This document shows positions 8,549-27,031 of a stretch of DNA of 64,000 nt, one piece after another. The position numbers and the translations under genes were made by a program. Origin of the DNA: an uncultured Acidobacteriota bacterium (GTDB taxonomy: Bacteria; Acidobacteriota; Thermoanaerobaculia; Multivoradales; UBA5704); contig OY969474.1 of assembly GCA_963700145.1 (NCBI GenBank), forward strand, positions 576,001-640,000. Reading direction: 5' to 3'. The notes under the pieces are model-generated. The model searched no databases. It had not been told where the DNA came from and saw only the letters and a list, made by a program, of their open reading frames with translations. How positions within the stretch are numbered: the first letter of the stretch is position 1; every line of letters starts with the position of its first letter.

Positions 8549-10933
8549 TCAGGGGATGGGCTGGTAAATGTTCTCATCGACGTCGATCTTACAGGCCGAC
8601 GCGTCGGAGTCGCCCTCCGGCGCGATGCAGAAATCGGTCATCATGCCCAGGCCCGCGTGGTGCAGGATGTGGCAGTGCATCAGCCAACGGCCCAGTCCGC
8701 CGCCGAACTCGGCGTCGGTGCCCGGCAGGTCCCCTGCGCCGCCGAACGGCGCGTCCTGGTCGTAGGGGAACTTGGCCTGCAACTGGTTGACGGTGAATAG
8801 CGTTGCGTCGGGGATCTTGAACCGGTCGGTGATCTTCACCCGGTACTTCAGGGCCAGCGCCGGCTGGATGCCCTCGACGTCCAGGAACTCGTTGTAGTCG
8901 TACGTGTAGACCGGGGGCTCGATGAGCGTGGCCGAGTCGACGACCTGCGGGTCCGGTCCAGGGACCAAGTTGACATTGTTGAACCTGTAGAGGGCGATCG
9001 GCTGGAACGAGAAGCCGTGCGCGTGGAACGGGTGATGCGCGGCGCCGGTGTTGTTGGCGACGACGAACTCCAGCACGTCGCCGATGTGCGCGTACCGCGT
9101 GGCGAGCTGGGTCGGCACCTCGTCGCCGCTGACCTCGTCCCCTTCGTACTCTCCCTTGACGGCGTTGATCGAGGGGAACCGCCGGTTGTCTTCGATACGG
9201 TTGCTGAGCACGAGGGACTGATCCACGTCGCGCCCCTGGAACGGGGTACCGAGGAACGGATCCAGCGCCTGCGGCACCGGCGAGAACGGCACGACGGTGG
9301 CGTTCCGCAAGTCCTCCGACGGCCGGTTGATCTCCGGATGCGCCATCAGGGGGTCGCCCTCGGCGAGGTCGAAGTCTGGCAGCCCGAGGGTGTCCGCGAT
9401 GATCTTGATGCGGACCAGCTTGCGGGCGGCGATGTCGCGGTTGCTGATGTCGCCGGTGCCGATGAGGTTGTCGAACTTCGGCGCGAAGGCGCCGTGTGGA
9501 TAGTCGATGGTCCAGATGTACATGCTCTCGCCGGGATCGAGGTAGTTGCCGTCGCGATCCTTGGTCACGACGACGAACTCGGTCCGCTCGGAGACGCCGA
9601 TGAAGTCCTCGCCTCTGCGGATGAGCGTGTCGAAGGCGCGCGGCACGAACGGATTGGCCGGCGGGAGCTCGGGCTGACCCTCGAGGCGCACGTGGTCGAG
9701 CAGGCCGTTCTGGCCGCCGATGCGGTACAGGGGGAGGCCCTGGTCGCAGGAGAGCGGGTCGGCGCCGGAGAACTTGACGCTGCTGCCGGGCGCGTAGCAC
9801 TGGCCGGTGGTCGCCCCACCCCTCTGCACCGCCGGGCCGAAAGGCGGCGTTTCACCCTCGAGCAGGAGACGGAAGCGGTAGAAGCGCTCGTTCGAGGAGT
9901 TGACGAACGAGATGCGCACGCCCTGGCCCTGCCGGACGGAGATCGTAAGAATGTCGGTGTCGCTCGTGGGGACCTTGCCGTTGACGAAGACCAGCTCGCC
10001 TTCGCGGACGATGCAATCGCCGGTGATCACGCCACGGTCGCACTGGCCGTCACCGTTGGTGTCGGGCGAGATGTCCGGCATCAGCTTGTTGTTCACTTCC
10101 TCGTCGGAGTAAACATTGAATTGGACGTTGTTTCTCCACTGAAACCGGTTGGTCTGGTTGGCGACCAGGGAGTCGTGGAGCTGGATGGCCTGCCTCTGCG
10201 CCGGCAGGACGCCGAGCTCTTCCAGGTCGTCTTCCTCGTAGGCTTTGACGGTGAGCTTGCCGATCATGCCGCGGTGCTCGCTGAGCAGCGGCAGGATGTG
10301 CGGGTGGAACCAGTAGTTGCCCGGACGATAGAGCCGGAACTGGTACAGGCGCTGCTCCCCCGTCTCGATGCCGAACTCGCTCACGGGAGTGCCGTCGCTC
10401 TCGTTGTCCAGCTCCATGCCGTGCCAGTGGACGATCTGCCGGTTGTCGGCCGGCGCGTAGAACCCGGTCCCGACCGCCTCGCCGTTGACCGCCTCCGGCA
10501 GCTCGTTCTTGACCGTGAGCTGCACGATGTCGCCCACTTTGCCGATGACCTCGATGTGGTCGGGCGTGCCGTTGTAGGCGGTGGCGTTCGGCGTGGTGAC
10601 GGTGGTGGCCTTCTTGAGATAGCCGTTCTGGAACACGAGCTGGGCCTGCAGGCGGCAGAGGTCGGCATCCTGCGCCGGGCCCTCCTTCTTGGTGCCGCCG
10701 CAGGCCACGCTGTTCGAAGCGTTCTTGAAGTTGCCGAGGACGTCGACGAACACGTAGGTGGGCACCGGCAGCTTGAGAGAGATCTCCGACATCACGATCT
10801 CTTTCTGGATGACGTGGAACTGATTGGGCGGCGGCGAAAAGTCTGACGCGGACAGAGGGGGAGCGGCGAGCAGGAGGCTGACTGCGATTGCCAGGGCGAT
10901 CGATGGCGGAAGCGAATGGCTCGGCGAGGACAT
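8549..10933 (-). CDS. Secreted multicopper oxidase (laccase-like)
   Basis: All four Cu motifs are present: HWHG, WFHPH, HHPFHAHG and HCHILHHAGLGM. N-terminal signal peptide and AGGAG RBS. Confidence 0.92.
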   Translation of the reverse strand: MSSPSHSLPPSIALAIAVSLLLAAPPLSASDFSPPPNQFHVIQKEIVMSEISLKLPVPTYVFVDVLGNFKNASNSVACGGTKKEGPAQDADLCRLQAQLVFQNGYLKKATTVTTPNATAYNGTPDHIEVIGKVGDIVQLTVKNELPEAVNGEAVGTGFYAPADNRQIVHWHGMELDNESDGTPVSEFGIETGEQRLYQFRLYRPGNYWFHPHILPLLSEHRGMIGKLTVKAYEEDDLEELGVLPAQRQAIQLHDSLVANQTNRFQWRNNVQFNVYSDEEVNNKLMPDISPDTNGDGQCDRGVITGDCIVREGELVFVNGKVPTSDTDILTISVRQGQGVRISFVNSSNERFYRFRLLLEGETPPFGPAVQRGGATTGQCYAPGSSVKFSGADPLSCDQGLPLYRIGGQNGLLDHVRLEGQPELPPANPFVPRAFDTLIRRGEDFIGVSERTEFVVVTKDRDGNYLDPGESMYIWTIDYPHGAFAPKFDNLIGTGDISNRDIAARKLVRIKIIADTLGLPDFDLAEGDPLMAHPEINRPSEDLRNATVVPFSPVPQALDPFLGTPFQGRDVDQSLVLSNRIEDNRRFPSINAVKGEYEGDEVSGDEVPTQLATRYAHIGDVLEFVVANNTGAAHHPFHAHGFSFQPIALYRFNNVNLVPGPDPQVVDSATLIEPPVYTYDYNEFLDVEGIQPALALKYRVKITDRFKIPDATLFTVNQLQAKFPYDQDAPFGGAGDLPGTDAEFGGGLGRWLMHCHILHHAGLGMMTDFCIAPEGDSDASACKIDVDENIYQPIP

Positions 10934-11037: not shown

Positions 11038-11053
11038 AGCAACGCATGTGCCA
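11038..11053 (-). promoter_or_regulatory. sigma54 (-24/-12) promoter for the multicopper oxidase
   Basis: Minus strand TGGCAC-ATGCG-TTGCT matches the TGGCAC-N5-TTGCW consensus, about 105 bp upstream of the oxidase ATG. Confidence 0.8.
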
Positions 11054-11255: not shown

Positions 11256-11449
11256 GGACTCGACCCCCGAGTGGCGGACGAGCCCGTCGGCTCGTCCCCC
11301 TCCCGCCTGCGGCGCGCACTGTGCTTGTGACTCGGTCAAGGCTATGCCGTCCCGCGAGCCTTCGAGGCTCCGCCCGCCGTTCCCCCCGCAAGGCGTATCC
11401 CTTTCGCCCCGAGGACGAGCCGCGTAATCCCAGCGATCCGAGGAGACCG

Positions 11450-12820
11450 ATGAACGCACGCATTACCGACCTCACGCTCGTCGCCCTCGCCCTCGCCGCC
11501 GCGCTCGCGGCCGGCTGCCGCGCGGCCCCGGGGGAGGTTCTCCAGGACTCGGTGCGCGAGGGCGCGGCGAGTACCGGCGCCGCCGCCGGGGACGAGATCG
11601 CCCACTACACTTGCTCGATGCACGCCTCGGTCCGCAACGCCGGGCCCGGGAGCTGCCCGATCTGCTCGATGGAGCTGGTGCCGGTGTTCCGGCGGGAGAT
11701 CGCGAGCGGGGAGATCGTGCTCGACGCCGGGCGGCGCCAGCAGATCGGCGTCACCACCGCCCGGGCGGAGCTGCGGACGCTCGCCGTGCCGGTGCGCGCG
11801 GTCGGCAAGGTGACCTACGACGAGACCGGTCTGACCGACGTGACGCTCAAGGTGGGCGGCTGGATCGACGAGCTCCACGTCGACCGCCTCGGCCAGCCGG
11901 TGCGCCAGGGTGAGCCGCTGTTCACGCTCTACAGCCCGGAGCTCTTCGAGGCCCAGCAGGAGTTCCTCACCGCGGCCAACAACCAGCGCATGGCGCGCAA
12001 GGTCGGCTCCTCCGAGAGCACCGTGTTCCTGGCCGAGGCGCGGCGCCAACGCCTGCGCCTGTTGGACCTGGTGCCGGACCAGATCAAGGACCTGGAAGCG
12101 CGCCGCGCGCCGCTCGAGCGCGTCCCGATCCTGTCACCGGCCTCCGGTCACGTGATCGAAAAAAACGTGGTCGCCGGCGCCGCGGTCGAACCCGGGATGC
12201 GCCTGCTGCGCATCGCCGCCCTTGACCGGGTGTGGGTGGAGGCCGAGGTCTACGAGTCGGAGCTGGCGCTGCTCGCGGTCGGCACCCCGGCGAAGGTCAC
12301 TCTCCCTTACCTCCCGGGACGGAGCTTCAGGGGCCGCATCGCGTTCGTCTACCCCTGGCTCGACGGCGCTACCCGCACCGGCCGGGTGCGCATCGAGCTG
12401 GCCAATCCCGGCCTCGTGCTCAAGCCGGAGATGTACGCCGAGGTCGCCTTCGAGCGCGCCCTCGGCAAGCGGCTGGCGGTGCCCGAGGAGGCGGTCCTCT
12501 ACGCCGGCGACCGCCGCTACGTCTTCCTCGACCTGGGCAGCGGGCGACTGCGGCCGCAGGCGGTGACCCTCGGCCAGTGGGCCGGCGAGTGGGTGGAGAT
12601 CCTCGACGGGCTGGAGCCCGGCGACGTGGTAGTCACCTCGGGCAACTTCCTGATCGCCGCCGAGGCCCGCCTCAAGCTGGCGCTCGATCACTGGACTCCG
12701 GAGACGACCGCGGCCGAAGGCGCCGCGCCCGCGGCGCCCGGCCGGCCGGCCGGGCACGACGCCCACGCCGGCCATAGCGGACACGGCGGACACGGCGGGC
12801 ACGAGCCAGAGGACCACTGA
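11450..12820 (+). CDS. cusB: CusB-like heavy-metal RND periplasmic adaptor
   Basis: AGGAG RBS, lipoprotein-like signal (LAAGC), YTCSMH...PGSCPICSMELVP metal-binding domain, LYSPEL..AQ.E, LKPEMYA, and a His-rich C-terminal tail. Confidence 0.88.
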   Translation: MNARITDLTLVALALAAALAAGCRAAPGEVLQDSVREGAASTGAAAGDEIAHYTCSMHASVRNAGPGSCPICSMELVPVFRREIASGEIVLDAGRRQQIGVTTARAELRTLAVPVRAVGKVTYDETGLTDVTLKVGGWIDELHVDRLGQPVRQGEPLFTLYSPELFEAQQEFLTAANNQRMARKVGSSESTVFLAEARRQRLRLLDLVPDQIKDLEARRAPLERVPILSPASGHVIEKNVVAGAAVEPGMRLLRIAALDRVWVEAEVYESELALLAVGTPAKVTLPYLPGRSFRGRIAFVYPWLDGATRTGRVRIELANPGLVLKPEMYAEVAFERALGKRLAVPEEAVLYAGDRRYVFLDLGSGRLRPQAVTLGQWAGEWVEILDGLEPGDVVVTSGNFLIAAEARLKLALDHWTPETTAAEGAAPAAPGRPAGHDAHAGHSGHGGHGGHEPEDH

Positions 12821-15800
12821 TGCACCCGCCCTCGGACGCGCCGCGCGCCGGCTGGATCGCGCGCGCGATCGCGGTCTCGGCGGCCAACCCGTGGCTGACC
12901 GTGCTGTTCGTCGCCGCGCTCGCGGTCTGGGGCTGGTATGCGCTCGCCCGCTCGCCGCTCGACGCCATCCCCGACCTCTCCGACGTCCAGGTCATCGTCT
13001 TCACCGAGTGGCCGGGGCAGAGCCCGGACATCGTCGAGGACCAGGTCACCTACCCGCTCGCCGCCGCGCTGCTCGCGGCGCCGCGGGTGGCCTTCGTGCG
13101 CGGCCAGTCGATGTTCGGGATGTCGTTCCTCTACGTCATCTTCGACGACGGCACCGACCTCTACTGGGCGCGTTCGCGCGTGCTCGAGTACCTCGACGAG
13201 GCGCGGGCGCGGCTGCCCGAAGGGGTGACGCCGACCCTCGGCCCCGACGCCACCGGCGTCGGCTGGGTCTACCAGTACGCGCTCGTCGACAAGAGCGGCC
13301 GCCTCGACCTCCAGGAGCTGCGCAGCCTCCAGGACTGGAACGTCCGCTTCGCCCTCGAGAGCGTCCCCGGCGTCGCCGAGGTCGCCTCGGTCGGCGGCTT
13401 CGTCAAGGAGTACCAGATCGTCGTCGACCCATTGAAGCTCGAGGCGTTCGGGATCCCGATCCAGGAGGTGGTGCGCGCGGTCCGCGAGTCCAATCAGGAG
13501 GTCGGCGGCCAGGTGCTCGAGCTGGCCGAGCACGAGGTGATGGTGCGCGGTCGCGGCTACGTCCGCGACCGGCGCGACCTCGAGCTGGTGGTGCTGCGGG
13601 CGACCGAGGCCGGCGCCCCGGTGCGCATCGCCGACATCGCCGAGGTGCGGCTCGGACCGGCGCCGCGCCGCGGGTTCGGCGAGCTGGACGGCTTGGGCGA
13701 GGCGGTCGGCGGCATCGTCGTCATGCGCTACGGCGAGAACGCGCTGGCGGTGATCGACGCCGTCGAGGAGCGCCTCGAAGAGGTGCGCGCGAGCCTCCCC
13801 GAGGGGGTCGAGCTGGTCGTCACCTACGACCGCTCGGGGCTGATCCGCGAGTCGATCGACACCCTTACCCGCACCCTGGTCGAGCAGATGCTGGTGGTCT
13901 CGCTGGTGATCGTCGCCTTCCTCCTCCACGCCAGGAGCTCCTTGGTGGCGATCGTCACCCTGCCGGTGGCGGTGCTGGTCTCGTTCATCCCGATGTCGTA
14001 TCAGGGGCTGACTATCAACATCATGTCTCTCGGCGGCATCGCCGTCGCCATCGGCGAGCTGGTCGACGCCTCGATCATCGTCATCGAGAACGTCCACAAG
14101 CGGCTCGAACGCTGGGAGGCGGGCGGCCGCGGCGAGCCGCGGCAGGCGGTGGTCGTCGCCGCGATGCAGGAGGTCGGGCCGTCGCTCTTCTTCTCGCTGC
14201 TGGTGATGACGGTCTCGTTCCTGCCGGTCTTCACGCTCCAGGGGGTCGAAGGGCGGCTGTTCCAGCCGCTCGCGTTCACCAAGTCCTACTCGATGGGCTT
14301 CGGCGCCCTGCTCGCGGTGACCCTGACCCCGGCGCTCGCCGTGCTCTTCATCCGCGGCCGCATCCGCCGCGAGGACGCGAGCCCGGTCAACCGCTGGCTG
14401 ATCCGTCTCTACACACCGGTGGTGCGCTTCGTCGTCCGCTGGCGCTGGCCAGTGGTGGCCGCGGCGGCGCTGGCGACGATCGCGACCGTCCCGGCCTTCC
14501 TCGCGCTGGAGAGCGAGTTCATGCCGCCGCTCCACGAGGGGGCGATCCTCTACATGCCGACCGCGCCGCCGGGGATGGGATCGAGCGAGGCGGTGCGCGT
14601 GCTCCAGGACATGGACCGCAAGCTCCGCGCGTTCCCCGAAGTGGTCTCGGTGTTCGGCAAGATGGGCCGCGCCGAGACCGCCACCGACCCGGCGCCGATC
14701 GGCATGGTCGAGACCGTGGTCGTGCTGAAGCCGCGGGAGGAGTGGCGCCCTGGGCTGACCTGGGACGGCCTGATCGCCGAGATGGACGCCAAGCTCTCCT
14801 ACCCCGGGATGCCCAACATCTGGTGGATGCCGATCCAGACCCGCACCGAGATGCTCTCCACCGGCATCCGCGCGCCGCTCGGGATCAAGGTGTTCGGCGA
14901 CGACCTCGCCACCATCGAGCGCGCCGCGATCGAGATCGAGGGGGTAGTCGCCGGCGTCCCGGGCACCCGCAGCGCCTTCGCCGACCGCTCGACCGGCGGC
15001 TTTTACCTCGACCTCGAGGTCGACCGCGAGGCGGCGGCGCGCTACGGCGTCCGGGTGGCCGACGTCCAGGACGCGGTCGTGACCGCGATCGGCGGCCTGG
15101 CGATCGCCGAGACCATCGAGGGGCGCCAGCGCTACCCGATCGCGGTCCGCTACGCCCGCGGCTTCCGCGACGACCCGCGCTGGCTCGAGCGCGTGCTGGT
15201 CGCCGCCCCGTCGGGTGCCCAGGTGGCGCTGCGTCAGGTGGCGCGGATCACCTTCGCCACCGGGCCGCCGATGATCCGCAGCGAGGACGGCCGGCTGGTC
15301 GGCTACGTCTTCGTCGACCCCGGCGAGCGCCCGCTCGGCGCCTATGTCGAGGAGGCGCGCCGGGCCGTGGCCGAGCGGGTGGCGCTGCCCTCCGGCGTGC
15401 GCATCGAGTGGGCCGGGCAGTTCCGCAACTACGAGCGCGCCCGTGAGCGGCTCAAGGCCGTGGTGCCGGTGACCCTGTTCCTGATCGTGCTGCTGCTCTA
15501 CCTCAACACCCGCTCGGTGGTCGAGGTCGGGATCGTGCTGCTGGCGGTGCCCTTCTCGCTGATCGGTGCGGTGTGGCTGCTCTGGCTGCTCGACTACCAC
15601 CTGAGCGTCGCGGTCTGGGTCGGGCTGATCGCACTCGCCGGGCTCGACGCCGAGACCGGAGTGGTGATGCTGCTCTACCTGAAGCTCGCCTGGCGGCGGA
15701 GGCGCGAGGAAGGACGCCTCGCGAGCTCCGAGGACCTGCGCGAGGCGATCGTCGAGGGCGCGGCGCAGCGCATCCGGCCCAAGCTGATGACCATGTTGAC

Positions 15801-16005
15801 GACGATAGTCGGCCTGCTGCCGGTCATGTGGTCCTCCGGCGCCGGTGCCGACGTGATGAAGCGGATCGCGGCGCCGATGTTCGGCGGCATCGTCACCTCG
15901 TTCCTGCTCGAGCTGACGGTCTATCCGGCGATCTTCGCGCTCTGGAAGCGGCCAGAATCCCCGGGGACCCCGGCGGCGCTCGCCGCAGCCGAGGAGGCGG
16001 CGTGA
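12820..16005 (+). CDS. cusA: CusA/CzcA-family heavy-metal RND permease (Cu/Ag type)
   Basis: DAIPDLSDVQVI, GPDATGVGW, WWMPIQTRTEMLSTG, RIRPKLMT and MKRIAAPM. 1061 aa, coupled to cusB by a TGATG overlap. Confidence 0.93.
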   Translation: MHPPSDAPRAGWIARAIAVSAANPWLTVLFVAALAVWGWYALARSPLDAIPDLSDVQVIVFTEWPGQSPDIVEDQVTYPLAAALLAAPRVAFVRGQSMFGMSFLYVIFDDGTDLYWARSRVLEYLDEARARLPEGVTPTLGPDATGVGWVYQYALVDKSGRLDLQELRSLQDWNVRFALESVPGVAEVASVGGFVKEYQIVVDPLKLEAFGIPIQEVVRAVRESNQEVGGQVLELAEHEVMVRGRGYVRDRRDLELVVLRATEAGAPVRIADIAEVRLGPAPRRGFGELDGLGEAVGGIVVMRYGENALAVIDAVEERLEEVRASLPEGVELVVTYDRSGLIRESIDTLTRTLVEQMLVVSLVIVAFLLHARSSLVAIVTLPVAVLVSFIPMSYQGLTINIMSLGGIAVAIGELVDASIIVIENVHKRLERWEAGGRGEPRQAVVVAAMQEVGPSLFFSLLVMTVSFLPVFTLQGVEGRLFQPLAFTKSYSMGFGALLAVTLTPALAVLFIRGRIRREDASPVNRWLIRLYTPVVRFVVRWRWPVVAAAALATIATVPAFLALESEFMPPLHEGAILYMPTAPPGMGSSEAVRVLQDMDRKLRAFPEVVSVFGKMGRAETATDPAPIGMVETVVVLKPREEWRPGLTWDGLIAEMDAKLSYPGMPNIWWMPIQTRTEMLSTGIRAPLGIKVFGDDLATIERAAIEIEGVVAGVPGTRSAFADRSTGGFYLDLEVDREAAARYGVRVADVQDAVVTAIGGLAIAETIEGRQRYPIAVRYARGFRDDPRWLERVLVAAPSGAQVALRQVARITFATGPPMIRSEDGRLVGYVFVDPGERPLGAYVEEARRAVAERVALPSGVRIEWAGQFRNYERARERLKAVVPVTLFLIVLLLYLNTRSVVEVGIVLLAVPFSLIGAVWLLWLLDYHLSVAVWVGLIALAGLDAETGVVMLLYLKLAWRRRREEGRLASSEDLREAIVEGAAQRIRPKLMTMLTTIVGLLPVMWSSGAGADVMKRIAAPMFGGIVTSFLLELTVYPAIFALWKRPESPGTPAALAAAEEAA

Positions 16006-16689: not shown

Positions 16690-18153
16690 ATGGCCACAGA
16701 AGCTACTCGTATTCCCAGCAACCGAGCCTTAGGCGAGGGCTCGAGCGCGCCTTCCCGGTCCCAGCCGGAAGCGGTGGGCGCTCGCTCGGCCACGGGGCGT
16801 GTCCTGGTCGTGGACGACGACCCGGGGACCTGTTGCACGCTGCAGGCGCTGCTGGAGAGCGAGGGTTACCGTGTCGCCACGGCGGGTAACGCCTTCCGGG
16901 GACTGGAGCGGCTGGGCGCGTTCCGCCCGCAGGTCGTTCTCACCGAGCTGCGCCTGCCCGGCCTCGACGGCCTGGCTTTCATGGAGAAGGTCAACGCCGC
17001 CTCGCCGGCGACCCAGGTGGTGGTGATGACCGGGCACGGGTCGGTCGCCGTGGCCGTCGAAGCGATGAAGCGCGGCGCCGACGATTTTCTGGAGAAGCCG
17101 TTCGACCTGAAGGTGCTGGGCCGCACGCTGCGCGACGCGATGGAGCGAGCCTCCCTGCTCGAGGAGGCCGGGGCTGGCGCGGGGCTCGACGGCGGCGCCG
17201 CGGCGCGCCTCGGGGTGGTCGGCGATCACGCGTCGATGGGCGCCGTCCTCCACCGGGCGGAGCAGGTCGCCCGGAGCCGGGCCACCGTCCTGCTCACCGG
17301 CGAGAGCGGCACCGGCAAGAGCCTCCTGGCGGAGACCATTCATCGCCTCTCCGGACGCACCAAGGCGCCCTTCGTGGAGGTGAGCTGCGCGGCCCTCTCC
17401 GAGTCGCTCTTGGAGTCGGAGCTGTTCGGCCACGAGCGGGGCGCCTTCACCGGCGCCATCTCCCGTCACGAGGGGCGCTTCAAGCGCGCCGACGGCGGGA
17501 CCCTGTTCCTCGACGAGATCGGGGCGTGCTCCCTGGCCACGCAGGTGAAGCTGTTGGGATTCCTCCAGACCCGGCGGTTCGAGCGCGTCGGCGGCCGCGA
17601 GATGCTGAGCGTCGACGTGCGGCTGATGGCGGCGACCAACCGCGACCTGCGCGAAGAGGTGGCGGCAGGCCGTTTCCGCGAGGACCTCTACTACCGTCTC
17701 AACGTCTTCTGCATCCAGCTCCCGTCTCTGCGGCTCCGGCGCAGCGACATCCCGGCCCTGGCGTCGAGCTTCCTGACGCGGTTCGCCGCCGAGAACGAGC
17801 GGCGGATCGACGGGTTCTCCCGCCGGGCGCTGGAGCGGCTGCTGGCCTACGACTGGCCGGGCAACGTGCGAGAGCTCGAGCACGCCGTCGAGCACGCCAC
17901 CGTCGTGGCGCGAGGTCGCCTGGTGATGCCGCAGGACCTGCCGGATTGGGTGGGCTCGGTGCCTCGCGACCCGCTGGAGGTGACGATCCCCGGCAGCACG
18001 CTGGCCGATATCGAGCGGGCCGCGATCCTCAAGAGCATGTTGGCCGCCGGGGGGAGGGCGGCCGACGCGGCCGCAATGTTGGGCATCTCCAAGAGCAAGA
18101 TCTACTCCCGCCTCCACGACTATGGCCGCGGGGACTCGGCCGGGGACAGCTAG
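16690..18153 (+). CDS. NtrC-family sigma54-dependent activator with atypical receiver domain
   Basis: REC domain, GESGTGKS, ELFGHERGAFTGA, LFLDEIG, FREDLYYRLN, WPGNVREL and a C-terminal HTH. Confidence 0.92.
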   Translation: MATEATRIPSNRALGEGSSAPSRSQPEAVGARSATGRVLVVDDDPGTCCTLQALLESEGYRVATAGNAFRGLERLGAFRPQVVLTELRLPGLDGLAFMEKVNAASPATQVVVMTGHGSVAVAVEAMKRGADDFLEKPFDLKVLGRTLRDAMERASLLEEAGAGAGLDGGAAARLGVVGDHASMGAVLHRAEQVARSRATVLLTGESGTGKSLLAETIHRLSGRTKAPFVEVSCAALSESLLESELFGHERGAFTGAISRHEGRFKRADGGTLFLDEIGACSLATQVKLLGFLQTRRFERVGGREMLSVDVRLMAATNRDLREEVAAGRFREDLYYRLNVFCIQLPSLRLRRSDIPALASSFLTRFAAENERRIDGFSRRALERLLAYDWPGNVRELEHAVEHATVVARGRLVMPQDLPDWVGSVPRDPLEVTIPGSTLADIERAAILKSMLAAGGRAADAAAMLGISKSKIYSRLHDYGRGDSAGDS

Positions 18154-18154: not shown

Positions 18155-20413
18155 GTGTACCGCGGAGCTCCCGTTCGGGAACTGATCGTGTGCCTGGCCA
18201 TCGCGGTGCTGGCGCCGGGCGGAACGGCCGCGGCGGCGGTCGGCGGCGGGGGAGTGCGACTACGGGGTGCCGTCGTCGACCCGGTCGGGGGCGCGATCGG
18301 CGGCGCGGTGGTCACCGCGGTGGAGCTCGCGACCGGGAAGCAAACCGCCGCGACCGCGGACGAGCGCGGCCGCTACCGGCTCGAGCTGGCTCCGGGCCGC
18401 TACCGGGTGGAGGCGGTGGCGGCGCACTTCGCGCCGGCGGCCCAGGAGGTCGTCCTCGCCGGCGACGAGGTGCTCGACTTCAAGCTCCCGCTCGCCCGGA
18501 TCTACGACTCGGTCCAGGTCGTCGAGCGCTCGCGCGGCGAGCTGCTGGCCGTGCCCGGCGGTGTCGCCGACGTCGGCGCGGCGGACATCGAGGAAGCCGG
18601 CTACGGCAACGTCTCTGAGGCGCTCAGGCTGCAGCCCGGGGTGATGGCGCGGTCGCGCTTCGGCGCCGACGAGGTGCAGCTCAGCGTGCGCGGCTCCGGG
18701 CTGCGCAACAACTTCCACACGCGGGGCGTCAACCTGCTGTTCAACGGGCGCCCGTACATGGACGCCGACGGCTTCGGCGACTTCGAGTCGCTCGACCTGA
18801 TGGCGACCGAGCGGATCGAGCTGTGGAAGGGGGCCAACGCACTGCGCTTCGGCGGCAACCAGGCCGGCGGCGCGATCAACTTCGTCACTCCGACCGGCGA
18901 GACCGCGCCCGAGCTGACGGTGCGGGCGCTCGGCGGATCGTTCGGCCTGCTCAAGGCCCAGGTCGCGTCGGGCGGCGTGCGGGGACCGCTCGGCTACTAT
19001 GCCAGCTTCAGCACCACCAAGAGCGACGGCTACCGCGACCACTCGGCCCAGCAGCGCCGCCGGCTGTTCTCGAACCTCGAGTGGGAGCTGTCGGCGGACA
19101 CCGACCTGCGCTTCGACCTGGTCTACGCCGGCGTCTCCGAGCAGCTGCCGGGCGCGCTGACGCGGGCGGAGTTCGCGGCCGATCCGCGCCAGGCCGACCC
19201 CGGCAACCGGGCCAACCGGTTCGGGCGCGACTACGACTTCGTCCACGCCGCCTTCGCCCTCGACCACCGGCTGGACGACGAGAACGTCATCGCGGTCAGC
19301 GTCCACGGCCACGTCCGCGACGTCGTCCATCCGATCTTCCAGATCCTCGACCAGGACCAGCGGACGGTGGGAGCCGACGTCGCCTGGCGGCGCACCGGCG
19401 GGCGCACGCGCCTCCTGCTCGGCATCGCGCCCCAGGGCGGCGGCAACCAGGAGGAGCGCTTCGCCAACCTCGGCGGCGAGCGCGGCGCGCCGACCGCGCG
19501 GTTCGCGACCGACGTCGTCAACCTCGGCGCCTACGGCGAGCTGCAGCTCGACGTCACCGAGCGGCTGGCGCTGGTCGCCGGCGGGCGCTGGGACTCGTCG
19601 CGGCGGGAGTTCGACGATCGCTTCCTCGCCGACGGCGACCGCTCGGACGTGCGCACCTTCGAGGCGCTCTCGCCCAAGCTCGGCGCGGTCTGGACCTCGG
19701 GGTCGGGGATCCAGGTCTTCGGCAACGTCAGCCGGGCCTACGAGCCGCCGCTGCTGCTCGAGCTGACGAGCTTCGGCAGCAACGCCGGCTTCATCGACCT
19801 CGAGGCCCAGGACGTCCGGCAGGTCGAGCTCGGCACCCGCGGGGCGCATGGGTCGGTGGTGTGGGACGTGGCGCTGTTCGACTGGGAGGTCGGCAACGAG
19901 ATCGTCAACGTCAACCTCCAGCCGTTCCCGGGGGCGCCGTTCACGATCCCGTCGTACCGCAACGCCGAGCGGACCCGCCATCTCGGGCTCGAGGTCGGCG
20001 GCGCGGTCGCCTTGGGCGACGTCACCTGGCGCGGCGCCTACACCTGGTCGCGCTTCACCTACGTCGGCGATCCCGAGTTCGGCGACAACGACCTGCCGGG
20101 GGCGCCGGAGCACGCCCTCTACACCGAGCTGCGCTGGCAGCACTCGTCGGGCTTCTGGATCGCGCCCAACCTCGACGCCAGCCTCTCGCCCTACTACGTC
20201 GACTCGGCCAACACCACCGAGAACGACCGCTTCGTCCTGCTCGGCTTGAAGGCCGGCGTCCCCATCGGCCGCGTGGAGCTGTCGTTGGAGGCGTCGAACC
20301 TGACAGGTGAGGCCTACTCGGGCTCGGTCCAGGTCGACAACGCGCTCGGACGCTACCTCGAGCCGGGCAACGAACGGGCGCTCCACGTCGGGCTCGGCTG
20401 GTGGCATGACTAG
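18155..20413 (+). CDS. TonB-dependent receptor with N-terminal carboxypeptidase-regulatory-like domain
   Basis: Signal peptide, plug motifs (SVRGSG, ERIELWKGANALRFG...GGAINF), beta-barrel pattern and aromatic C-terminus. Start codon uncertain. Confidence 0.88.
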   Translation: MYRGAPVRELIVCLAIAVLAPGGTAAAAVGGGGVRLRGAVVDPVGGAIGGAVVTAVELATGKQTAATADERGRYRLELAPGRYRVEAVAAHFAPAAQEVVLAGDEVLDFKLPLARIYDSVQVVERSRGELLAVPGGVADVGAADIEEAGYGNVSEALRLQPGVMARSRFGADEVQLSVRGSGLRNNFHTRGVNLLFNGRPYMDADGFGDFESLDLMATERIELWKGANALRFGGNQAGGAINFVTPTGETAPELTVRALGGSFGLLKAQVASGGVRGPLGYYASFSTTKSDGYRDHSAQQRRRLFSNLEWELSADTDLRFDLVYAGVSEQLPGALTRAEFAADPRQADPGNRANRFGRDYDFVHAAFALDHRLDDENVIAVSVHGHVRDVVHPIFQILDQDQRTVGADVAWRRTGGRTRLLLGIAPQGGGNQEERFANLGGERGAPTARFATDVVNLGAYGELQLDVTERLALVAGGRWDSSRREFDDRFLADGDRSDVRTFEALSPKLGAVWTSGSGIQVFGNVSRAYEPPLLLELTSFGSNAGFIDLEAQDVRQVELGTRGAHGSVVWDVALFDWEVGNEIVNVNLQPFPGAPFTIPSYRNAERTRHLGLEVGGAVALGDVTWRGAYTWSRFTYVGDPEFGDNDLPGAPEHALYTELRWQHSSGFWIAPNLDASLSPYYVDSANTTENDRFVLLGLKAGVPIGRVELSLEASNLTGEAYSGSVQVDNALGRYLEPGNERALHVGLGWWHD

Positions 20414-21155
20414 CGTTCGCCCGCTGCTCCTGCTGCTCTCCCTCGCCGCACCGGCCGCCGCCGAGGAGGTAGTCGTCGCCGTCGCCGCCAACTTCACCGA
20501 GGTCGTGGAGCGGCTCGAAGCCGACTTCGAGCGCGACAGCGGGCACACTTTGTCCGTCGTGGCCGGGTCCACCGGCAAGCTCTACGCCCAGATCGCCAAC
20601 GGCGCCCCGTTCGACGTCTTCCTCTCCGCCGACCAGGAGAGGCCCGAGCGGCTGGAGAAGGAACGCCTGGCGGTTGCCGGCTCGCGCTTCACCTACGCCA
20701 CCGGGCGCCTAGCGCTGTGGAGCTCCGAGCCCGGCCGCGTCGGCGGCGACGGCGCGGCCACGCTGCGTCAGGGGGAGTTCCGCCGGCTGGCGATCGCCAA
20801 TCCCGCCCTGGCTCCCTACGGCGCGGCGGCGAAGGAGACGCTCGAGAAGCTCGGCCTCTGGGAGCGCTTCAAGGAGAGGATCGTCATGGGCGAGACGATC
20901 GGTCAGGCGCACACCCTCGTCGCCTCCGGCAACGCGGAGCTCGGCTTCGTCGCGCTCTCCTCCCTGCTCAGTCCGCGGAGCGAGGCCAAGGGCAGTCGCT
21001 GGGACGTGCCTCCCGGGCTGCACGCGCCGATTCACCAGGACGCCGTCCTGCTCACCAGAGCCGCCGGCAACGCCGCGGCACGGGGCTTCCTCGACTTGCT
21101 GCGCAGCGAGAAGGCCAAGGCCGTCATCCGCAGCTACGGCTACAGGATCGATTGA
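20406..21155 (+). CDS. modA: Molybdate ABC transporter substrate-binding protein
   Basis: VAVAANF, GSTGKLYAQIANGAPFDVFLSAD, IANP..APYGAAA. Overlaps the receptor stop. Confidence 0.93.
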   Translation: MTSVRPLLLLLSLAAPAAAEEVVVAVAANFTEVVERLEADFERDSGHTLSVVAGSTGKLYAQIANGAPFDVFLSADQERPERLEKERLAVAGSRFTYATGRLALWSSEPGRVGGDGAATLRQGEFRRLAIANPALAPYGAAAKETLEKLGLWERFKERIVMGETIGQAHTLVASGNAELGFVALSSLLSPRSEAKGSRWDVPPGLHAPIHQDAVLLTRAAGNAAARGFLDLLRSEKAKAVIRSYGYRID

Positions 21156-21157
21156 CG

Positions 21158-21844
21158 ATGGAGCTGCGGCACCTGCCGGACCTCGGTCCGCTCTGGCTCA
21201 CCCTGCGCCTGGCCGCCTCGGCGACCGGCATCCTCCTGCTCGTCGGCACCCCGATCGCGTGGTGGCTGGTGAGGACGAGGTCCCGCTTTCGGCCGGCCTT
21301 CGAGGCGGTCATCGCGCTGCCGCTCGTGCTGCCGCCGACGGTGCTCGGCTTCTATCTGCTGCTGCTTCTCGGGCCGAGGTCCACGCTGGGCGGCCTCTGG
21401 GTGCGGCTGACCGACAGCACCCTGACGTTTTCGTTCGGCGGGCTGCTCATCGCCTCGGTGCTCTACTCGATGCCGTTCATGGTGCAGCCGCTGCAGAGCG
21501 CGTTCGAGACCGTCAGCCGCGAGCCGATGGAAGCGGCGGCCACTCTCCGCGCCGCGCCGCTCGACGCCTTCTTCACCGTCGTGGTGCCGCTGTCGATCCG
21601 CGGCTTCCTCACCGCGGCGGTGCTCACCTTCGCCCACACGCTCGGCGAGTTCGGTGTCGTGCTCATGGTGGGCGGCAACATCCCGGGCAAGACGCGGGTG
21701 ATCTCGATCGCCATCTACGAGCACGTGGAGACCCTCCGCTATGCAGACGCGCACGCTCTCTCGGCCATTCTCCTGGTCTTCTCGTTCGTGGTCCTGGCCG
21801 TGGTCTATACCGTCAATCGCACCCTCCCCCTCCACCTCCGATGA
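21158..21844 (+). CDS. modB: Molybdate ABC transporter permease
   Basis: LPLVLPPTVLGFYLL, EAA motif, FAHTLGEFGVVLMVGGNIPGKT. Confidence 0.95.
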   Translation: MELRHLPDLGPLWLTLRLAASATGILLLVGTPIAWWLVRTRSRFRPAFEAVIALPLVLPPTVLGFYLLLLLGPRSTLGGLWVRLTDSTLTFSFGGLLIASVLYSMPFMVQPLQSAFETVSREPMEAAATLRAAPLDAFFTVVVPLSIRGFLTAAVLTFAHTLGEFGVVLMVGGNIPGKTRVISIAIYEHVETLRYADAHALSAILLVFSFVVLAVVYTVNRTLPLHLR

Positions 21845-21848
21845 CGCG

Positions 21849-22934
21849 CTGGTCTTCGACCTGCGGGTGCGCCTCGGCGACTTCGAGCTCGACGTCGCCG
21901 GCGAGATCGACACCGGCCGGGTGACCGCGATCTTCGGGCCGAGCGGCAGCGGCAAGAGCACTCTCCTGCGCATCCTGGCCGGCCTCGAGCGGAGCGCCAG
22001 CGGACGTCTGTCGCTCGGCCGCGAGGTCTGGCTCGACAGCGCTCGCGGGCTCGACGTCCCGGCGCACCGCCGGCCGGTCGGCTACATGTTCCAGGAGGCG
22101 CGGCTGTTCCCTCACCTGACCGCGGAAGGCAACCTCCGCTATGCTGCGCGCAGGGCGAGATGCGAACGGCAGGTCGTCACCTTCGACGAGGTGGTGGACG
22201 CTCTGGACCTCGAGCCGCTTCTGCCGCGGCGGACGTCGAGCCTGTCGGGAGGGGAGCGCCAGCGGGTCGCCCTCGGCCGCACGCTGCTCGCTCAGCCGCG
22301 GCTGCTCCTGCTCGACGAGCCCATATCCGCGCTCGACACCTCACGCAAGATGGAGATCCTGCCGTACCTCGAAGCGCTCCACCCCCGTTTCGGCATCCCC
22401 ACTCTCTACGTGAGCCACTCCGTCGACGAAGTCGCCCTGTTGGCGGACCGCATTCTCGTCCTGGCCGGAGGGCGGGTGGCGGCGAAAGGCCGCACCGCCG
22501 AGATCTTCGAGCGTCTCGACCTCGGGTCGATCGCCGACCGCCGCGGCGCCGCCACCGTCGTCGAGGCGAGGGTCATGCGCCACGACCCCGAGTATCGCCT
22601 GACGTGGCTCGATCTGGCGGGGCAGACGTTGGTGGTTCCGCAGCGCGAGCACTTCGCCGAGGGCGAGGAGGCGTGCGTGGTCATCCGCGCGCGCGACGTC
22701 TCGCTGGCGACCGTTCGCCCGCAGCGCGTGAGCATCCAGAACATCCTCCAGGGTCGAGTGTGCGAGGTGCGAGAGCGCGAGGGCTCGGCATTCGCCGAGG
22801 TCTCGGTCGAGCTCGGGCCGCACCGCCTCCTCGCCCGCATCACGCGCCTGTCGCTGCGCGAGCTCGAGCTCGGCGTCGGCTCGCCGGTCTTCGCCCTGTT
22901 GAAAAGCGTGAGTCTCTCGAAACAGCGGGCGTAG
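21849..22934 (+). CDS. modC: Molybdate ABC transporter ATPase with TOBE/mop domain
   Basis: GPSGSGKST, FQEARLFPHL, LSGGERQR, LLLDEP and a C-terminal mop-like domain. Start is ambiguous (CTG 21849, GTG 21867, or an out-of-frame ATG at 21841). Confidence 0.9.
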   Translation: MVFDLRVRLGDFELDVAGEIDTGRVTAIFGPSGSGKSTLLRILAGLERSASGRLSLGREVWLDSARGLDVPAHRRPVGYMFQEARLFPHLTAEGNLRYAARRARCERQVVTFDEVVDALDLEPLLPRRTSSLSGGERQRVALGRTLLAQPRLLLLDEPISALDTSRKMEILPYLEALHPRFGIPTLYVSHSVDEVALLADRILVLAGGRVAAKGRTAEIFERLDLGSIADRRGAATVVEARVMRHDPEYRLTWLDLAGQTLVVPQREHFAEGEEACVVIRARDVSLATVRPQRVSIQNILQGRVCEVREREGSAFAEVSVELGPHRLLARITRLSLRELELGVGSPVFALLKSVSLSKQRA

Positions 22935-22952
22935 CCGCCCCGAAAGGAAACG

Positions 22953-23777
22953 ATGAAAGCAGAGTGGCAGGGCGAGCTCCTGAGCGAGCTGGGTCGCAAC
23001 CTGGTCGCAGGGTCTCTGACCGACCCCGAGCTCCTCCGCCAGACGGCCGGCCCGGTGCACCAGATCCTGCCCGAGGCCAACGTCGTCAAGATCGGCGGCC
23101 AGAGCATCATCGACCGGGGCGGGAAGGCGGTGTTCCCGCTGATCGAGGAGATCGTCGCCAACCTGCCGCGCCACCAGATCATCCTCGGCACCGGCGCCGG
23201 CACCCGGGCGCGCCAGGCCTACAGCGTGGCATTGGACCTCGGCCTGCCGATCGGGGTGATGAGCGTCCTCGGCACCTTCGTATCGATGCAGAACGCCCGC
23301 ATGATCCACTACCTGCTCGCCAAGCACGGCATCCCGTTCATCGAGCCGGCCCAGTTCCCCCAGCTTCCGCTCTATCTCGTCGAGCGCCGGGCGGTGATCT
23401 TCTTCGGCATGCCGCCCTACACCTTCTGGCAGGAGAACCCGGCGGTGGGGCGCATCCCTCCCCACCGCACGGACACCGGTGCCTACCTGGTCAGCGAGGT
23501 CTTCGGGACGCGTTCGATGATCTACGTCAAGGACGAGGACGGCCTCTACACCGCCGATCCGAAGAAGGACAAGCAGGCGCGCTTCATCCCGAAGATCACC
23601 GTCGCCGAGCTGGAGGCGATGGACTTGAAGGACGTGGTGGTGGAGCGGGCGGTCCTCGAGCTGATGAAGAACGCCCAGCACCGGCGCTCGATCCGCGTGA
23701 TCAACGGCCTGGTGCCCGGCAACCTCACCCGCGCCCTCGAGGGCGAGGACGTCGGCACGCTGATCACGGCGGACTGA
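22953..23777 (+). CDS. mosB: Molybdenum storage protein beta subunit-like (amino acid/UMP kinase fold)
   Basis: SLTDP.L, KIGGQSIIDRG..AVFPL, GTGAGTRAR, GMPPY, IPP.RTD.G, VKDEDGLYTADPK and NGLVPGNLTRAL match my recollection of A. vinelandii MosB. Confidence 0.8.
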   Translation: MKAEWQGELLSELGRNLVAGSLTDPELLRQTAGPVHQILPEANVVKIGGQSIIDRGGKAVFPLIEEIVANLPRHQIILGTGAGTRARQAYSVALDLGLPIGVMSVLGTFVSMQNARMIHYLLAKHGIPFIEPAQFPQLPLYLVERRAVIFFGMPPYTFWQENPAVGRIPPHRTDTGAYLVSEVFGTRSMIYVKDEDGLYTADPKKDKQARFIPKITVAELEAMDLKDVVVERAVLELMKNAQHRRSIRVINGLVPGNLTRALEGEDVGTLITAD

Positions 23778-23817
23778 TAGGCGCGAAAGCCTTCGCGCCC
23801 GTGTCTGATTGCTACCA

Positions 23818-23859
23818 GGAGCGCCGTCCGTCGCGCGACCAGCGCGACGGGCTCCTAGG
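23818..23859. repeat. REP-like palindromic element, copy 2 (mosB-mosA spacer)
   Basis: Same 32-bp core as 5833-5864. Its TAGG end runs directly into the AGGAGG RBS of the next gene. Confidence 0.75.
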
Positions 23860-23868
23860 AGGAACGCG

Positions 23869-24702
23869 ATGAAAGAGATCCGTCCCGGGGACGGGCGCCA
23901 CCACGTCGACTCGCTGCTGATGCGCGAGAGCCTGCTCGACAGAGACCTCGAGGCCGCCACCGACGACCACCGGCCGCTGGTGCGGATGCTCCCCGACGCC
24001 TGCGTGCTCAAGATCGGCGGGCGCTCGATCATCGACCGCGGGCGGCACGCCCTCTTCCCCCTCGTCGAGGCCGTCGGCAAGGCCCTCGCCGGCCGCACCC
24101 TGATCATCGGCACCGGCGGCGGCGTGCGCAGCCGTCACGTCTTCTCGATCGGCCTCGACCTCGGGATGCCGACCGGGGTCCTCGCCCAGCTCGCCATCGC
24201 CGACGCCCTCGGCAACGCCCACATCCTCGGCACCCTGCTCTCCCCGTACGGGGTGGTGGCGATCCCGCCCGAGATCTTCGGCCACCTGCTGCCGTTCTTC
24301 GTCAAGGCCGCGCCGGGAGTCATCTTCAACGGCGATCCGCCGTACTCGATCTGGGAGCACCCGCCCCCGATGGGGCGGATCCCGCGCCACCGCACCGACG
24401 CCGGCAGCTACTTGACCGCCGAGTGCTTCGGCTGCAAGTCGTTCACGCTGGTCAAGGACGTCGACGGTCTCTACGACGCCGACCCGAAGGACCACCCGTC
24501 GGCGAGCCTGATCCGGGAGATCAGCGTCTCCGAGCTGCGCGCCCGCCGCCTGCCCTCGCTCCCCTTCGACGAGATCCTGCTCGACCTGCTGGAACGGGCG
24601 CGGCTGGTCGACCGCTTCCAGATCGTCAACGGTCTCAAGCCGGAGCTGCTCGCGCCGGCGCTCGACGGCGAGCACGTCGGCACGATCGTCTGGGCGGGGT
24701 GA
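23869..24702 (+). CDS. mosA: Molybdenum storage protein alpha subunit-like paralog
   Basis: N-terminus HVDSLLMRESLLDRDL resembles MosA HVISPLARQTLQDRDL. Also KIGGR, GVRSRHVFSIGLDLG, GNAHIL and GEHVGT. Confidence 0.7.
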   Translation: MKEIRPGDGRHHVDSLLMRESLLDRDLEAATDDHRPLVRMLPDACVLKIGGRSIIDRGRHALFPLVEAVGKALAGRTLIIGTGGGVRSRHVFSIGLDLGMPTGVLAQLAIADALGNAHILGTLLSPYGVVAIPPEIFGHLLPFFVKAAPGVIFNGDPPYSIWEHPPPMGRIPRHRTDAGSYLTAECFGCKSFTLVKDVDGLYDADPKDHPSASLIREISVSELRARRLPSLPFDEILLDLLERARLVDRFQIVNGLKPELLAPALDGEHVGTIVWAG

Positions 24703-24704: not shown

Positions 24705-24833
24705 CGGTTCCGGAGACTTGAGAGACGAGAAGCCGACCGCGAGGGTGACCGCATAGGCCACGCCAAGGACCACGACGCCCACCGCCGAGAAGATTCCGAG
24801 GCGACGAGCCGTCGCGCTGAACTCAACGGCCAC
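24705..24833 (-). pseudogene. Truncated N-terminal fragment of a membrane protein
   Basis: GGAGAG RBS plus GTG gives (M)AVEFSATARRLGIFSAVGVVVLGVAYAVTLAVGFSSLKSPE, one clean TM helix, after which the frame runs into antisense mosA. Confidence 0.45.
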
Positions 24834-25863
24834 TGCTCTCCCCGGACGCCGCCAACTTATCCAAGCAATTCTCAAAGGCTCCGGGAGTCCAAAGACACTG
24901 TTTAGTCGCCACGGCCGTCGGGCTAAGAACCCTCTCCACGATCGGCCTAATCCACCTGTCCCAACTCACAAAGATGTCGGAATGGGCGAGGGGAGCGGTC
25001 ATGAGCTCAATGTCAAAAAAGTAGCTCGCCTTATCCTTTCGTCCCGGATCCTGGCCTATGACAAGGAACACATTGACATACTGGGTAATGGAGGGCATCG
25101 ATTTCAAAAGGTGACCCGCAGCTCCACGATAACGATCTCTGGGCAACTCTTCCACGCGCCGCAGCATCTCCAGGTGAGCCGGGAGCGGAAGCGACCGACT
25201 CAGCTCGATAAAGCGAGGGGTCACAAAGTTCCTGAGCGCCGCCTCTTCCTCGATTCGCCGTGCCTTCTCTTTGCTTCCCCCGGCAATCTCCTTGCGCCGG
25301 AGCGAAGTCGCGGCAAGAGCTGGCACCGGACCCTCCTCCATGGAGAACGCCTGACGAGTCATTTTGCAAAGCTCAACCAAGCCGATACCCTTTAGTGCCT
25401 GACCGGCAATTGCTTGATCGGTTCGCATCAGCAACCGCGTCGAGAAGGGAAGCTCGGCTATATGGGCGATGACGGGCACGAAGAGTACAGAGGGATCCAC
25501 TGCTGGGCGGCTACCACGCCGAATCTCTTCAAAGACGGCATCAACTTCCGCGGTGAATATCTCCTCGGTGGAGGCAAACGATATGTTGAGACTGAATTCC
25601 TCCATCAGCGCTGCAACGCGGAGGGCAGAAGAAAATGACTGCCTGTAGAGCTCCCAGATGAGGGACGCTGTGAGGGGACAGAAGACCATTGCCCCGCTTA
25701 CAAGGTCCTGGAGCTTCTCGCGGAGCCGCGCTCCTTGCTCGGTGCTGGCTTCCGCGAGATCAATCCAGACGTTCATGTCCATCAGGACGACGAGACGCCC
25801 TTCAACCTTCTTGGAGATTTCCGGGTCTCGTAACTTCATTGGAATGACCTGCTCTTCATTCAT
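24823..25863 (-). CDS. Hypothetical protein, possibly PIN-like nuclease fold
   Basis: AT-richer 346-aa ORF with N-terminal VLMDMNVWI and C-terminal FFDIEL...SDIFVSWD, resembling PIN acidic motifs. Confidence 0.55.
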   Translation of the reverse strand: MNEEQVIPMKLRDPEISKKVEGRLVVLMDMNVWIDLAEASTEQGARLREKLQDLVSGAMVFCPLTASLIWELYRQSFSSALRVAALMEEFSLNISFASTEEIFTAEVDAVFEEIRRGSRPAVDPSVLFVPVIAHIAELPFSTRLLMRTDQAIAGQALKGIGLVELCKMTRQAFSMEEGPVPALAATSLRRKEIAGGSKEKARRIEEEAALRNFVTPRFIELSRSLPLPAHLEMLRRVEELPRDRYRGAAGHLLKSMPSITQYVNVFLVIGQDPGRKDKASYFFDIELMTAPLAHSDIFVSWDRWIRPIVERVLSPTAVATKQCLWTPGAFENCLDKLAASGESSGR

Positions 25864-26755: not shown

Positions 26756-27031
26756 TTGAATCTCTCGGAGTTTCTCGAAGGCGCGGCGGGCCGCGCTCTC
26801 GCTGCGGCGCTGGAGCGGAAGGCGCGGGGGAAGCGGAAGAGAGACAGGGCCCGGAAGGCTCGCGCCGCGGGGCGGCGCTCAGGGACGGTCTGCGGCCGCT
26901 GGAGTGGGGACGGAGAGGTTCCCGGATCTGCGGCTCTCGGGGCGGTGGCTGCGGGCGGCAGGCTTCGACTTAGGACATGCGTACGAAGTGGAGGTGCACG
27001 CCGGAAGGCTGGTCGTCCGGGCGGTTTCTGA
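26756..27031 (+). pseudogene. SymE-family type I toxin-like gene, apparently frameshifted
   Basis: Core PDLRLSGRWLRAAGFDLGHAYEVEVHAGRLVVRAV is in a different frame from the upstream basic segment ...RRSGTVCGRWSGDGEVP. The shift is near 26921-26925. Confidence 0.6.

Follow-up and report, generated by a model that had tools for sequence, protein, structure and literature searches.

The stretch of DNA analysed here (the window, 64,000 nucleotides of contig OY969474.1 from an uncultured Acidobacteriota bacterium) carries an operon in which a TonB-dependent outer-membrane receptor is followed by the molybdate transporter genes modA, modB and modC and by two genes of the molybdenum storage protein (MoSto) family. 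The six genes are co-oriented on the forward strand and mostly abut one another, with the receptor stop overlapping modA, as had been described for the same place in the first-pass annotation (Table 1). The receptor start is a GTG, and an in-frame ATG is also present at 18122. The G+C content at third codon positions (GC3) is 0.90-0.96 in all six genes, which resembles that of secA (0.98) and cusA (0.96), and the block is therefore not recently foreign. The nearest named relatives of the receptor, ModA and the Mos proteins are found in the Thermoanaerobaculia (Acidobacteriota). On balance, we lean towards reading the locus as a molybdenum uptake-and-storage operon that has recruited a copper-type receptor, two units of different origin having been joined.

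Table 1. Genes and other features of the operon and its upstream neighbours in the window.
Feature	Positions	Strand	Basis and remarks
TonB-dependent receptor	18155..20413	+	Pfam, PDB searches, structure model, conservation, neighbourhoods; carboxypeptidase-regulatory-like N domain, plug, barrel; PqqU/YncD-like fold; invariant His188/His392 of a copper-associated family
ModA periplasmic molybdate-binding protein	20406..21155	+	TIGR01256, PDB 7t4z
ModB permease	21158..21844	+	TIGR02141
ModC ATPase, C-terminal TOBE domain	21840..22934	+	TIGR02142, Pfam ABC_tran and TOBE; start codon uncertain
MoSto beta-type chain (MosB ortholog; P0004)	22953..23777	+	A. vinelandii MoSto matches, trees
91-nt spacer with two stable hairpins, then a strong AGGAGG ribosome-binding site	23778..23868	+	RNA fold
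MoSto alpha-side chain, separate subfamily (P0005)	23869..24702	+	MoSto matches, trees, fold, residues
Sigma-54-dependent response regulator	16690..18153	+	Pfam; abuts receptor
CusB/CusA-type heavy-metal efflux pair (copper cluster upstream of receptor)	11447..16005	+	Pfam; TIGR00914 above cut-off
Multicopper-oxidase-like gene	8549..10933	-	Pfam Cu-oxidase domains

The molybdate transporter and the MoSto-family pair

ModABC systems import molybdate and tungstate. All three subunits of the locus score above curated cut-offs, which bears out their first identification: ModA reaches 217 bits against a cut-off of 62.5 (TIGR01256), ModB 233.8 against 182.6 (TIGR02141) and ModC 414.7 against 285 (TIGR02142), and the best solved relative of ModA is the PDB ModA 7t4z (E 2.8e-71). 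By sequence, this part is an ordinary molybdate ABC transporter. A tungstate-specific Tup/Wtp identity was rejected, the WtpB and TupB models scoring far below their cut-offs. The locus differs from other ModABC systems in having no ModE gene or box nearby and in the irregular start of modC. No nif gene, ModE gene or molybdoenzyme domain was found by a Pfam scan of 51 open reading frames (ORFs) of the window, and the absence of nif and ModE noted in the first-pass annotation therefore stands; its statement that no ModE box is visible holds near the operon, but one box-like match lies 31 kb away. An Rfam scan of the window gave 0 matches and hence no molybdenum cofactor (Moco) riboswitch. At the modB junction modC has no start in frame, since the ATG within the ATGA overlap, at 21841, is shifted by one base against the modC frame, and the in-frame starts are an ATG at 21741 (inside modB), a CTG at 21849 and a GTG at 21867. 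This irregularity (21838-21870) may reflect a sequencing slip, a rare start or a real frameshift.

Both paralogs that follow modC match the MoSto of Azotobacter vinelandii. P0004 matches the beta chain with an E-value of 6e-92 and the alpha chain with 1e-59, and P0005 matches them with 2.5e-67 and 3e-59, respectively. For both, uridine monophosphate (UMP) kinases and isopentenyl phosphate kinases trail at about 1e-8, and MoSto matches beat UMP kinases by more than 50 orders of magnitude. The structure model of P0005 (pLDDT, a predicted value of the local distance difference test, 83.7) aligns to MoSto chains with Z 32-33 and a root-mean-square deviation of 2.3-3.1 over 236-256 residues, against Z 24 to UMP kinases. 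The paralogs could also be taken for ordinary uridylate or amino-acid kinases, given the Pfam AA_kinase assignment and the names "uridine kinase" and "uridylate kinase" that NCBI gives to close matches. This can be set aside almost entirely: the PyrH models reach 57 bits against a cut-off of 158, the E-values (1e-59 to 1e-92 against 1e-8) and the fold (Z 32-33 against 24) favour MoSto, and an Azospirillum MosB ortholog bears the same misleading name. The comparison with MosA, MosB and PyrH thus places the pair in the MoSto family, as first proposed, and not with PyrH.

The position of the two chains within the family was studied in midpoint-rooted trees of 38 rows and of 21 of those rows, built without a UMP kinase outgroup. 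P0004 clusters with Azospirillum MosB (support 99/97 with 38 rows and 98/97 with 21 rows). P0005 falls on the alpha side as a subfamily of its own (95/92 and 82/89, respectively) and is 44% identical to Azospirillum MosA and 46% to Azospirillum MosB. Its placement as a second beta chain was rejected (p-AU, approximately unbiased test, 0.02), as was a recent duplication (p-AU 4e-5), the groups in these tests having been named after the first tree was seen. Residues were compared in A. vinelandii alpha numbering, mapped via Azospirillum MosA, in 49 alpha-side rows (P0005 and 48 relatives at 87% identity or more). Lys45, Arg83, Arg85, His114, His168, Arg169 and Asp171 are retained in 49/49 rows, and beta Lys42 in 72/72 beta-type rows. 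We take alpha Lys45, Arg83, Arg85, Arg169 and Asp171 and beta Lys42 to be kinase-site residues, with Lys45 serving ATP use. Alpha Glu190 reads Lys, as in the beta chain. An alpha-beta pair, rather than the (alpha-beta)3 hexamer, was folded and is predicted with a score of 0.70, compared with 0.01 for the best of three controls; contacts agree by at least 95% between runs and the partner pLDDT is 88. The mark applied to this score was attained by 51 of 78 solved pairs and 2 of 108 mismatched pairs. Since a like complex is already solved, this prediction indicates likeness only.

The MoSto-family pair thus shares with A. vinelandii MoSto the two amino-acid-kinase-fold paralogs, one beta-type and one alpha-side, the core Lys/Arg/His/Asp positions and the predicted pairing, and it shares with Azospirillum B510 the beta-then-alpha order. 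It differs in standing in one operon with modABC: in the two Azospirillum mos loci that were read, neither mod genes nor a receptor adjoin mos, and the window is devoid of nif. The 10 mos records found on plasmids are all from Azospirillum. The family itself is very large, with at least 7996 clusters (7996 of 8000 scored candidates pass 1e-30); among clusters at 50% identity, 172 pass 1e-30. The top Atlas clusters are archaeal, acidobacterial and proteobacterial, and the topmost look-alike is archaeal. As first annotated, MoSto appears undescribed in this lineage, but many family members are already labelled "molybdenum storage protein" by JGI. In RefSeq, Azospirillum MosB orthologs (for example 7986-8798 of locus L081) are called "uridine kinase" or "uridine monophosphate kinase", and such misleading names hide the family in name searches. 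Two unusual architectures were also seen: P0388 (732 aa) has a MoSto-family domain fused to an N-terminal membrane region, and P0241 (467 aa) apparently contains two MoSto-like units in tandem.

The receptor and its copper-associated family

The best PDB match of the receptor is PqqU/YncD of E. coli (E 2e-38 by sequence and 1.5e-75 by profile), and the top Foldseek match of its model (pLDDT 83.9) is PqqU 9c4o, with TM-scores of 0.77/0.87. An importer of pyrroloquinoline quinone (PQQ) of the PqqU type, unrelated to either metal, could therefore be considered. The PqqU signature consists of Y/F/W99, R304 and R365 (PMC12124388), and the profile alignment gives F187, R388 and E433 at these positions, so that two of the three fit. 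The third does not, and in E. coli PQQ import is impaired by the substitutions R365E and K274E (PMC12124388). In the receptor, K274 is replaced by D359, R365 by E433 and Q84 by D172, two invariant His are added and an extra N-terminal domain is present, while Arg358 and Arg388 are kept. Membership in PqqU was rejected on R365 to E433 and on an NCBIfam PqqU score of 167 against a cut-off of 1200, and with the copper-type neighbourhoods described below PQQ import becomes very improbable.

The two added residues, His188 and His392, are each present in 108/108 distant receptor matches. They lie 204 residues apart here and 203-204 apart in three of the four proteobacterial relatives that were read. 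Caulobacter TccA, which is needed for the aa3 oxidase and whose defect is rescued by copper, has a predicted copper site of His116/His321, 205 residues apart (PMC12617631). CrtA (BfrG) of Bordetella pertussis, also CruR-led, imports chelated Cu(II) using an invariant His (PMC12914433), but belongs to another TonB-receptor cluster. Membership in CrtA was rejected, as the profile match to its structure 9rvq (E 3.3e-10) covers the plug region only, compared with about 1e-75 for PqqU. An Atlas search with the receptor returned generic receptor clusters only.

Multiple loci of this family were compared by scanning GTDB with an alignment of 44 receptors. Of 194 relatives found, the best 80 loci were kept (41-79% identity, mostly Acidobacteriota and Gemmatimonadota); the relatives at 84-95% are not among them, and 67 of the 80 have at least 1.5 kb of downstream sequence. 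Genes for mos occur in 0/80 of these loci, and modABC in one (L057), about 6.8 kb upstream and behind unrelated genes, where the receptor has its own leader and CopCD. Copper-type neighbours are common: a BNR propeller is found in 46/80 loci, CopCD in 14/80 and YcnI in 8/80, and any of the three in 59/80. CusF (4/80) and PepSY_TM (3/80) are also seen, as are CbiX (4/80) and NikR/CbiM (1/80). The loci in which a receptor relative has a CbiX-like chelatase gene or NikR/CbiM genes next to it (L002, L003, L005, L007 and L030) hint that some members of the family serve Ni or Co.

Directly upstream of the receptor, a short Cys-motif ORF ending in [AG]PP is present in 50/77 loci, compared with 5/878 control windows. 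This is a post hoc figure, the pattern having been relaxed after TAPP and NGPP ends were seen in Gemmatimonadota; the stricter first pattern (R/H/K-x-P-P) gave 12/77 against 23/878. The short ORF is built like CruR, a leader that senses copper, carries CXXC and RAPP motifs and stands at the front of copper operons containing TonB receptors, PepSY_TM, CopC and YcnI (PMC9426467). The neighbours of the receptor family fit this list; CruR-headed copper uptake operons have receptors of the TccA (Caulobacter) and PcuB (Bradyrhizobium) type. Across L001-L080, the leaders (up to 450 nt upstream; Acidobacteriota and Gemmatimonadota) end in RGPP, RAPP, TAPP or NGPP and are mostly missed by the DUF2946 model, and they possibly extend the copper-sensing arrest peptides. 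On plasmids 17 receptor relatives were matched, and the four that were read are proteobacterial. An annotated DUF2946 gene lies directly upstream in 3/4 of these, with a "copper uptake system-associated protein" in 2/4 and DUF1775 in 1/4, and mod genes are found in none of the four. The nearest readable locus, L001 (79%), carries a leader ending in RGPP and lacks mod genes.

Surroundings of the operon

In the window, the receptor differs from CruR-headed operons in having modABC downstream and no leader upstream. The place of the leader is occupied by the sigma-54-dependent response regulator, which stops 1 nt ahead of the receptor GTG and is probably co-transcribed with it. It is not a conserved neighbour of the family, in which receiver-domain matches only were found, in 4/80 loci. 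The cusB/cusA-type pair and the multicopper-oxidase-like gene lie directly upstream in the window. About 105 nt upstream of the latter (794 aa), a perfect sigma-54 -24/-12 site is present at 11039-11053 (-), the only one with 0 mismatches among 35 pattern matches in the window; with two mismatches allowed, the pattern is at chance level (35 matches against 46.7). This site may be a target of the regulator, which lacks an adjacent kinase gene. Scans for sigma-70 promoters and terminators gave no useful excess over chance.

The spacer between the two mos genes (fold of 23775-23872) has a predicted energy of -50.6 kcal/mol (z -3.74), and 0 of 200 shuffles were equally stable. The hairpins could set chain stoichiometry or mRNA stability. 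Elsewhere in the window, an ORF of 176 aa, signal-like at its start and without a family, lies between cusA and the regulator (16052-16582, +). Directly after mosA, two lower-GC ORFs without clear family (24823-25863 and 25904-26482, both -) are followed by a SymE-like fragment at about 26904-27030. Within a polysaccharide gene region (37100-40796, +), two tandem secreted-looking proteins both end in a C-terminal endosialidase-chaperone (Peptidase_S74) domain.

Weighing the readings of the operon

In the proposed mechanism, ModA would capture molybdate (or tungstate) in the periplasm and ModBC would pump it into the cytoplasm, a step assigned because import is the established function of ModABC. 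The two MoSto-family chains would assemble into an alpha-beta cage, which would be loaded with metal at the expense of ATP and hold it as oxo-clusters, buffering the supply for molybdoenzymes encoded elsewhere. The load of a MoSto is about 100 Mo or W atoms in polyoxometalate form, taken up with ATP. MoSto of A. vinelandii loads molybdenum with ATP and buffers its supply (PMC6448029), and cage assembly and storage are inferred from it for a pair whose cavity lining is different. The receptor would import a divalent cation chelate, Cu(II) first, via His188 of the plug and His392 of the barrel. In one lineage of Thermoanaerobaculia it would have been placed directly ahead of modA and translationally coupled to it, and in some relatives, as sequence scars suggest, it would later have been deleted, its signal peptide being left on ModA. 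For its own passage through the outer membrane, molybdate would not need the receptor. The receptor likely stems from a copper context and likely continues to transport a chelated cation. The first-pass annotation had proposed a dedicated outer-membrane importer of Mo/W, possibly as a metallophore; the receptor is probably not such an importer, because its family otherwise adjoins copper-handling genes, with mos in none of the 80 loci and modABC in one, at a distance. The join appears to be lineage-specific and the receptor dispensable.

A number of observations weigh against the reading of a copper-type receptor joined to a storage operon. The end of the receptor and the start of modA overlap by 8 nt, the modA start codon lying inside the last codons of the receptor. 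Linkage in relatives was inferred from identical contig size, among the best 120 rows per search and on contigs of at least 4 kb. By this measure, four of the seven closest full-length receptors (P0008-P0014, 84-95% identity) apparently share a contig with a ModA match, and three of them with a Mos match. Two of 120 ModA matches start with the receptor tail in a shifted frame, as in the window, and the M-N-S start produced by the overlap is seen in 10/120 ModA matches and 0/108 receptor N-termini (the broader start expected from it, M-[NTSI]-[SR], in 28/120 and 8/108). In four of 120 ModA matches (P0286, P0292, P0294 and P0333; KWTPVR motif), the receptor signal peptide is fused to mature ModA, a departure from other ModABC systems that is apparently the scar of an in-frame receptor deletion. 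Only these rows with the W-T/K-P-V-R motif were counted, because a shuffle test proved too permissive (16/120 beat all 200 shuffles). The receptor-modA link thus looks old within its lineage, though confined to a shallow sub-lineage. On the copper side, no CruR-like leader was matched near the receptor (two matches occur window-wide, at 33019 and 34938), its BNR partner is absent, and 3 of 23 leaders tested match the DUF2946 model, all below cut-off. The likeness to TccA was judged by His spacing. In the family, msrPQ is found in 12/80 loci, and in nine of them, in Gemmatimonadales, it lies directly upstream; as msrPQ encodes a molybdoenzyme, this is a weak point for a molybdenum link of the family. 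The nine loci have msrPQ upstream of a leader-receptor-BNR module (L025, L029, L033, L035, L038, L058, L059, L061 and L078).

In a narrower form of the first-pass view, the receptor of this lineage would be re-specialised, or broad enough, to import Mo or W bound in a small chelate or a metallophore complex. It would thereby feed ModA, and the locus would be a complete scavenge-and-store unit. The modA overlap and the missing copper leader would fit, as would the linkage kept across receptors 84-95% and ModA proteins 76-93% identical, and the retained Arg358 and Arg388. A. vinelandii takes up molybdenum as metallophore complexes (PMC3440940), and CrtA has been described as a low-selectivity carboxylate-chelate scavenger (PMC12914433). 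No mark of such a change is seen in the pocket: 18 columns separate the clade of the window's receptor from distant matches, but none is unique with respect to the copper-context receptors P0015-P0017, and no pocket position sets the Mo-linked clade apart from these. Through the substitutions given above, the pocket is less positive than that of the anion transporter PqqU, and two His are gained. A quick tree places the Mo-linked receptors together in one shallow group, which is nested above L001/P0015 (leader, no mod), P0016 and P0017 (BNR fusion); the support is weak (0.73). Among 84 distant receptors, a contig size is shared with ModA in 0 and with Mos in 1, and this single match (5778) was rejected as chance, the sources being different. 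The association of this receptor clade with modA is absent at the level of the 80 family loci and apparently present in the shallow sub-lineage. Genes for modA and mos are apparently on one contig in 16 of 49 modA rows of at least 4 kb, of which 3/16 also match a receptor, and four ModA matches look like receptor deletions; together with the absence of mos from the family loci, this makes a receptor for Mo/W chelates unlikely. We consider it similarly doubtful that one Thermoanaerobaculia lineage has converted a copper-chelate receptor into a Mo/W-chelate importer, or has made it the entry point of a combined supply of Cu and Mo for enzymes requiring both, delivering to ModABC and to a MoSto variant able to store the metal in the absence of the canonical His/Glu anchors. 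Enzymes that need both metals include the Mo-Cu carbon monoxide dehydrogenase and the denitrification chain, none of which was seen in the window.

The storage function of the pair has to be weighed separately. Its assignment as MosB and MosA holds for the family and for the beta-then-alpha order, but the second chain is without the canonical MosA cluster ligands. In 49/49 alpha-side rows, and again weighing against storage as in A. vinelandii, Glu129 is replaced by Pro133, His156 by Ser160 and His140, which presumably sits at the three-fold axis as a cluster ligand, by Phe144. Judged by these residues, the second chain falls outside canonical MosA, and the pair would form a variant cage. Glu129 and His156 are covalent ligands of the MoSto Mo8 cluster (PMC4504029). 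The pair could therefore represent an older MoSto-like type that serves, with ATP, to buffer, chaperone or sense Mo/W rather than as a bulk polyoxometalate store, with covalent-cluster bulk storage being special to the proteobacterial MosA branch. In line with this, the His156-His157 pair is present only in three MosA rows of the tree alignment, MosA forms a long separate branch, many family members lie outside the alpha/beta split and the top Atlas look-alike is archaeal. Against it, the pair retains an alpha-beta architecture, van der Waals contacts alone hold several of the MoSto clusters (PMC4504029), a structure of H156A MoSto is on record (6h6w), and His139 and His164, near the positions of the missing ligands, are invariant in the alpha-side rows and might substitute for them. 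These points leave room for storage by the variant cage; a buffer or sensor is given little weight, and by analogy with MoSto the variant cage would probably store Mo or W.

Searches of the open-access literature gave no report describing MoSto from Acidobacteriota, the present alpha variant or a link between a TonB receptor and modABC. In a 2019 paper, MoSto is presented as being without known homologs (PMC6448029), and in a 2026 survey, MosAB are among the rarest molybdenum genes and restricted to select taxa (PMC13144720). A 2024 review of TonB substrates contains neither "molybd" nor "tungst", but no "copper" either (PMC11658791). The route by which molybdate is known to pass the outer membrane is ModA-IcmP in Pseudomonas aeruginosa (PMC8602904), and molybdophores have been noted (PMC3440940). 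If the receptor did carry molybdenum chelates, it would answer how molybdenum actively crosses the outer membrane, and, as far as the literature searched shows, no TonB-dependent transporter before it would have been genetically connected with a mod operon. As favoured here, it is a caution against reading a substrate from a single operon and a compact test case, with one and the same pocket occurring both behind copper leaders and ahead of molybdate genes and an apparent gain and loss within one lineage. Studies of MoSto have dealt with one nitrogen fixer; here it belongs to a large family and is coupled to modABC in Acidobacteriota, and its alpha chain, lacking the known cluster anchors, is a natural test case for the residues required in a polyoxometalate cage.

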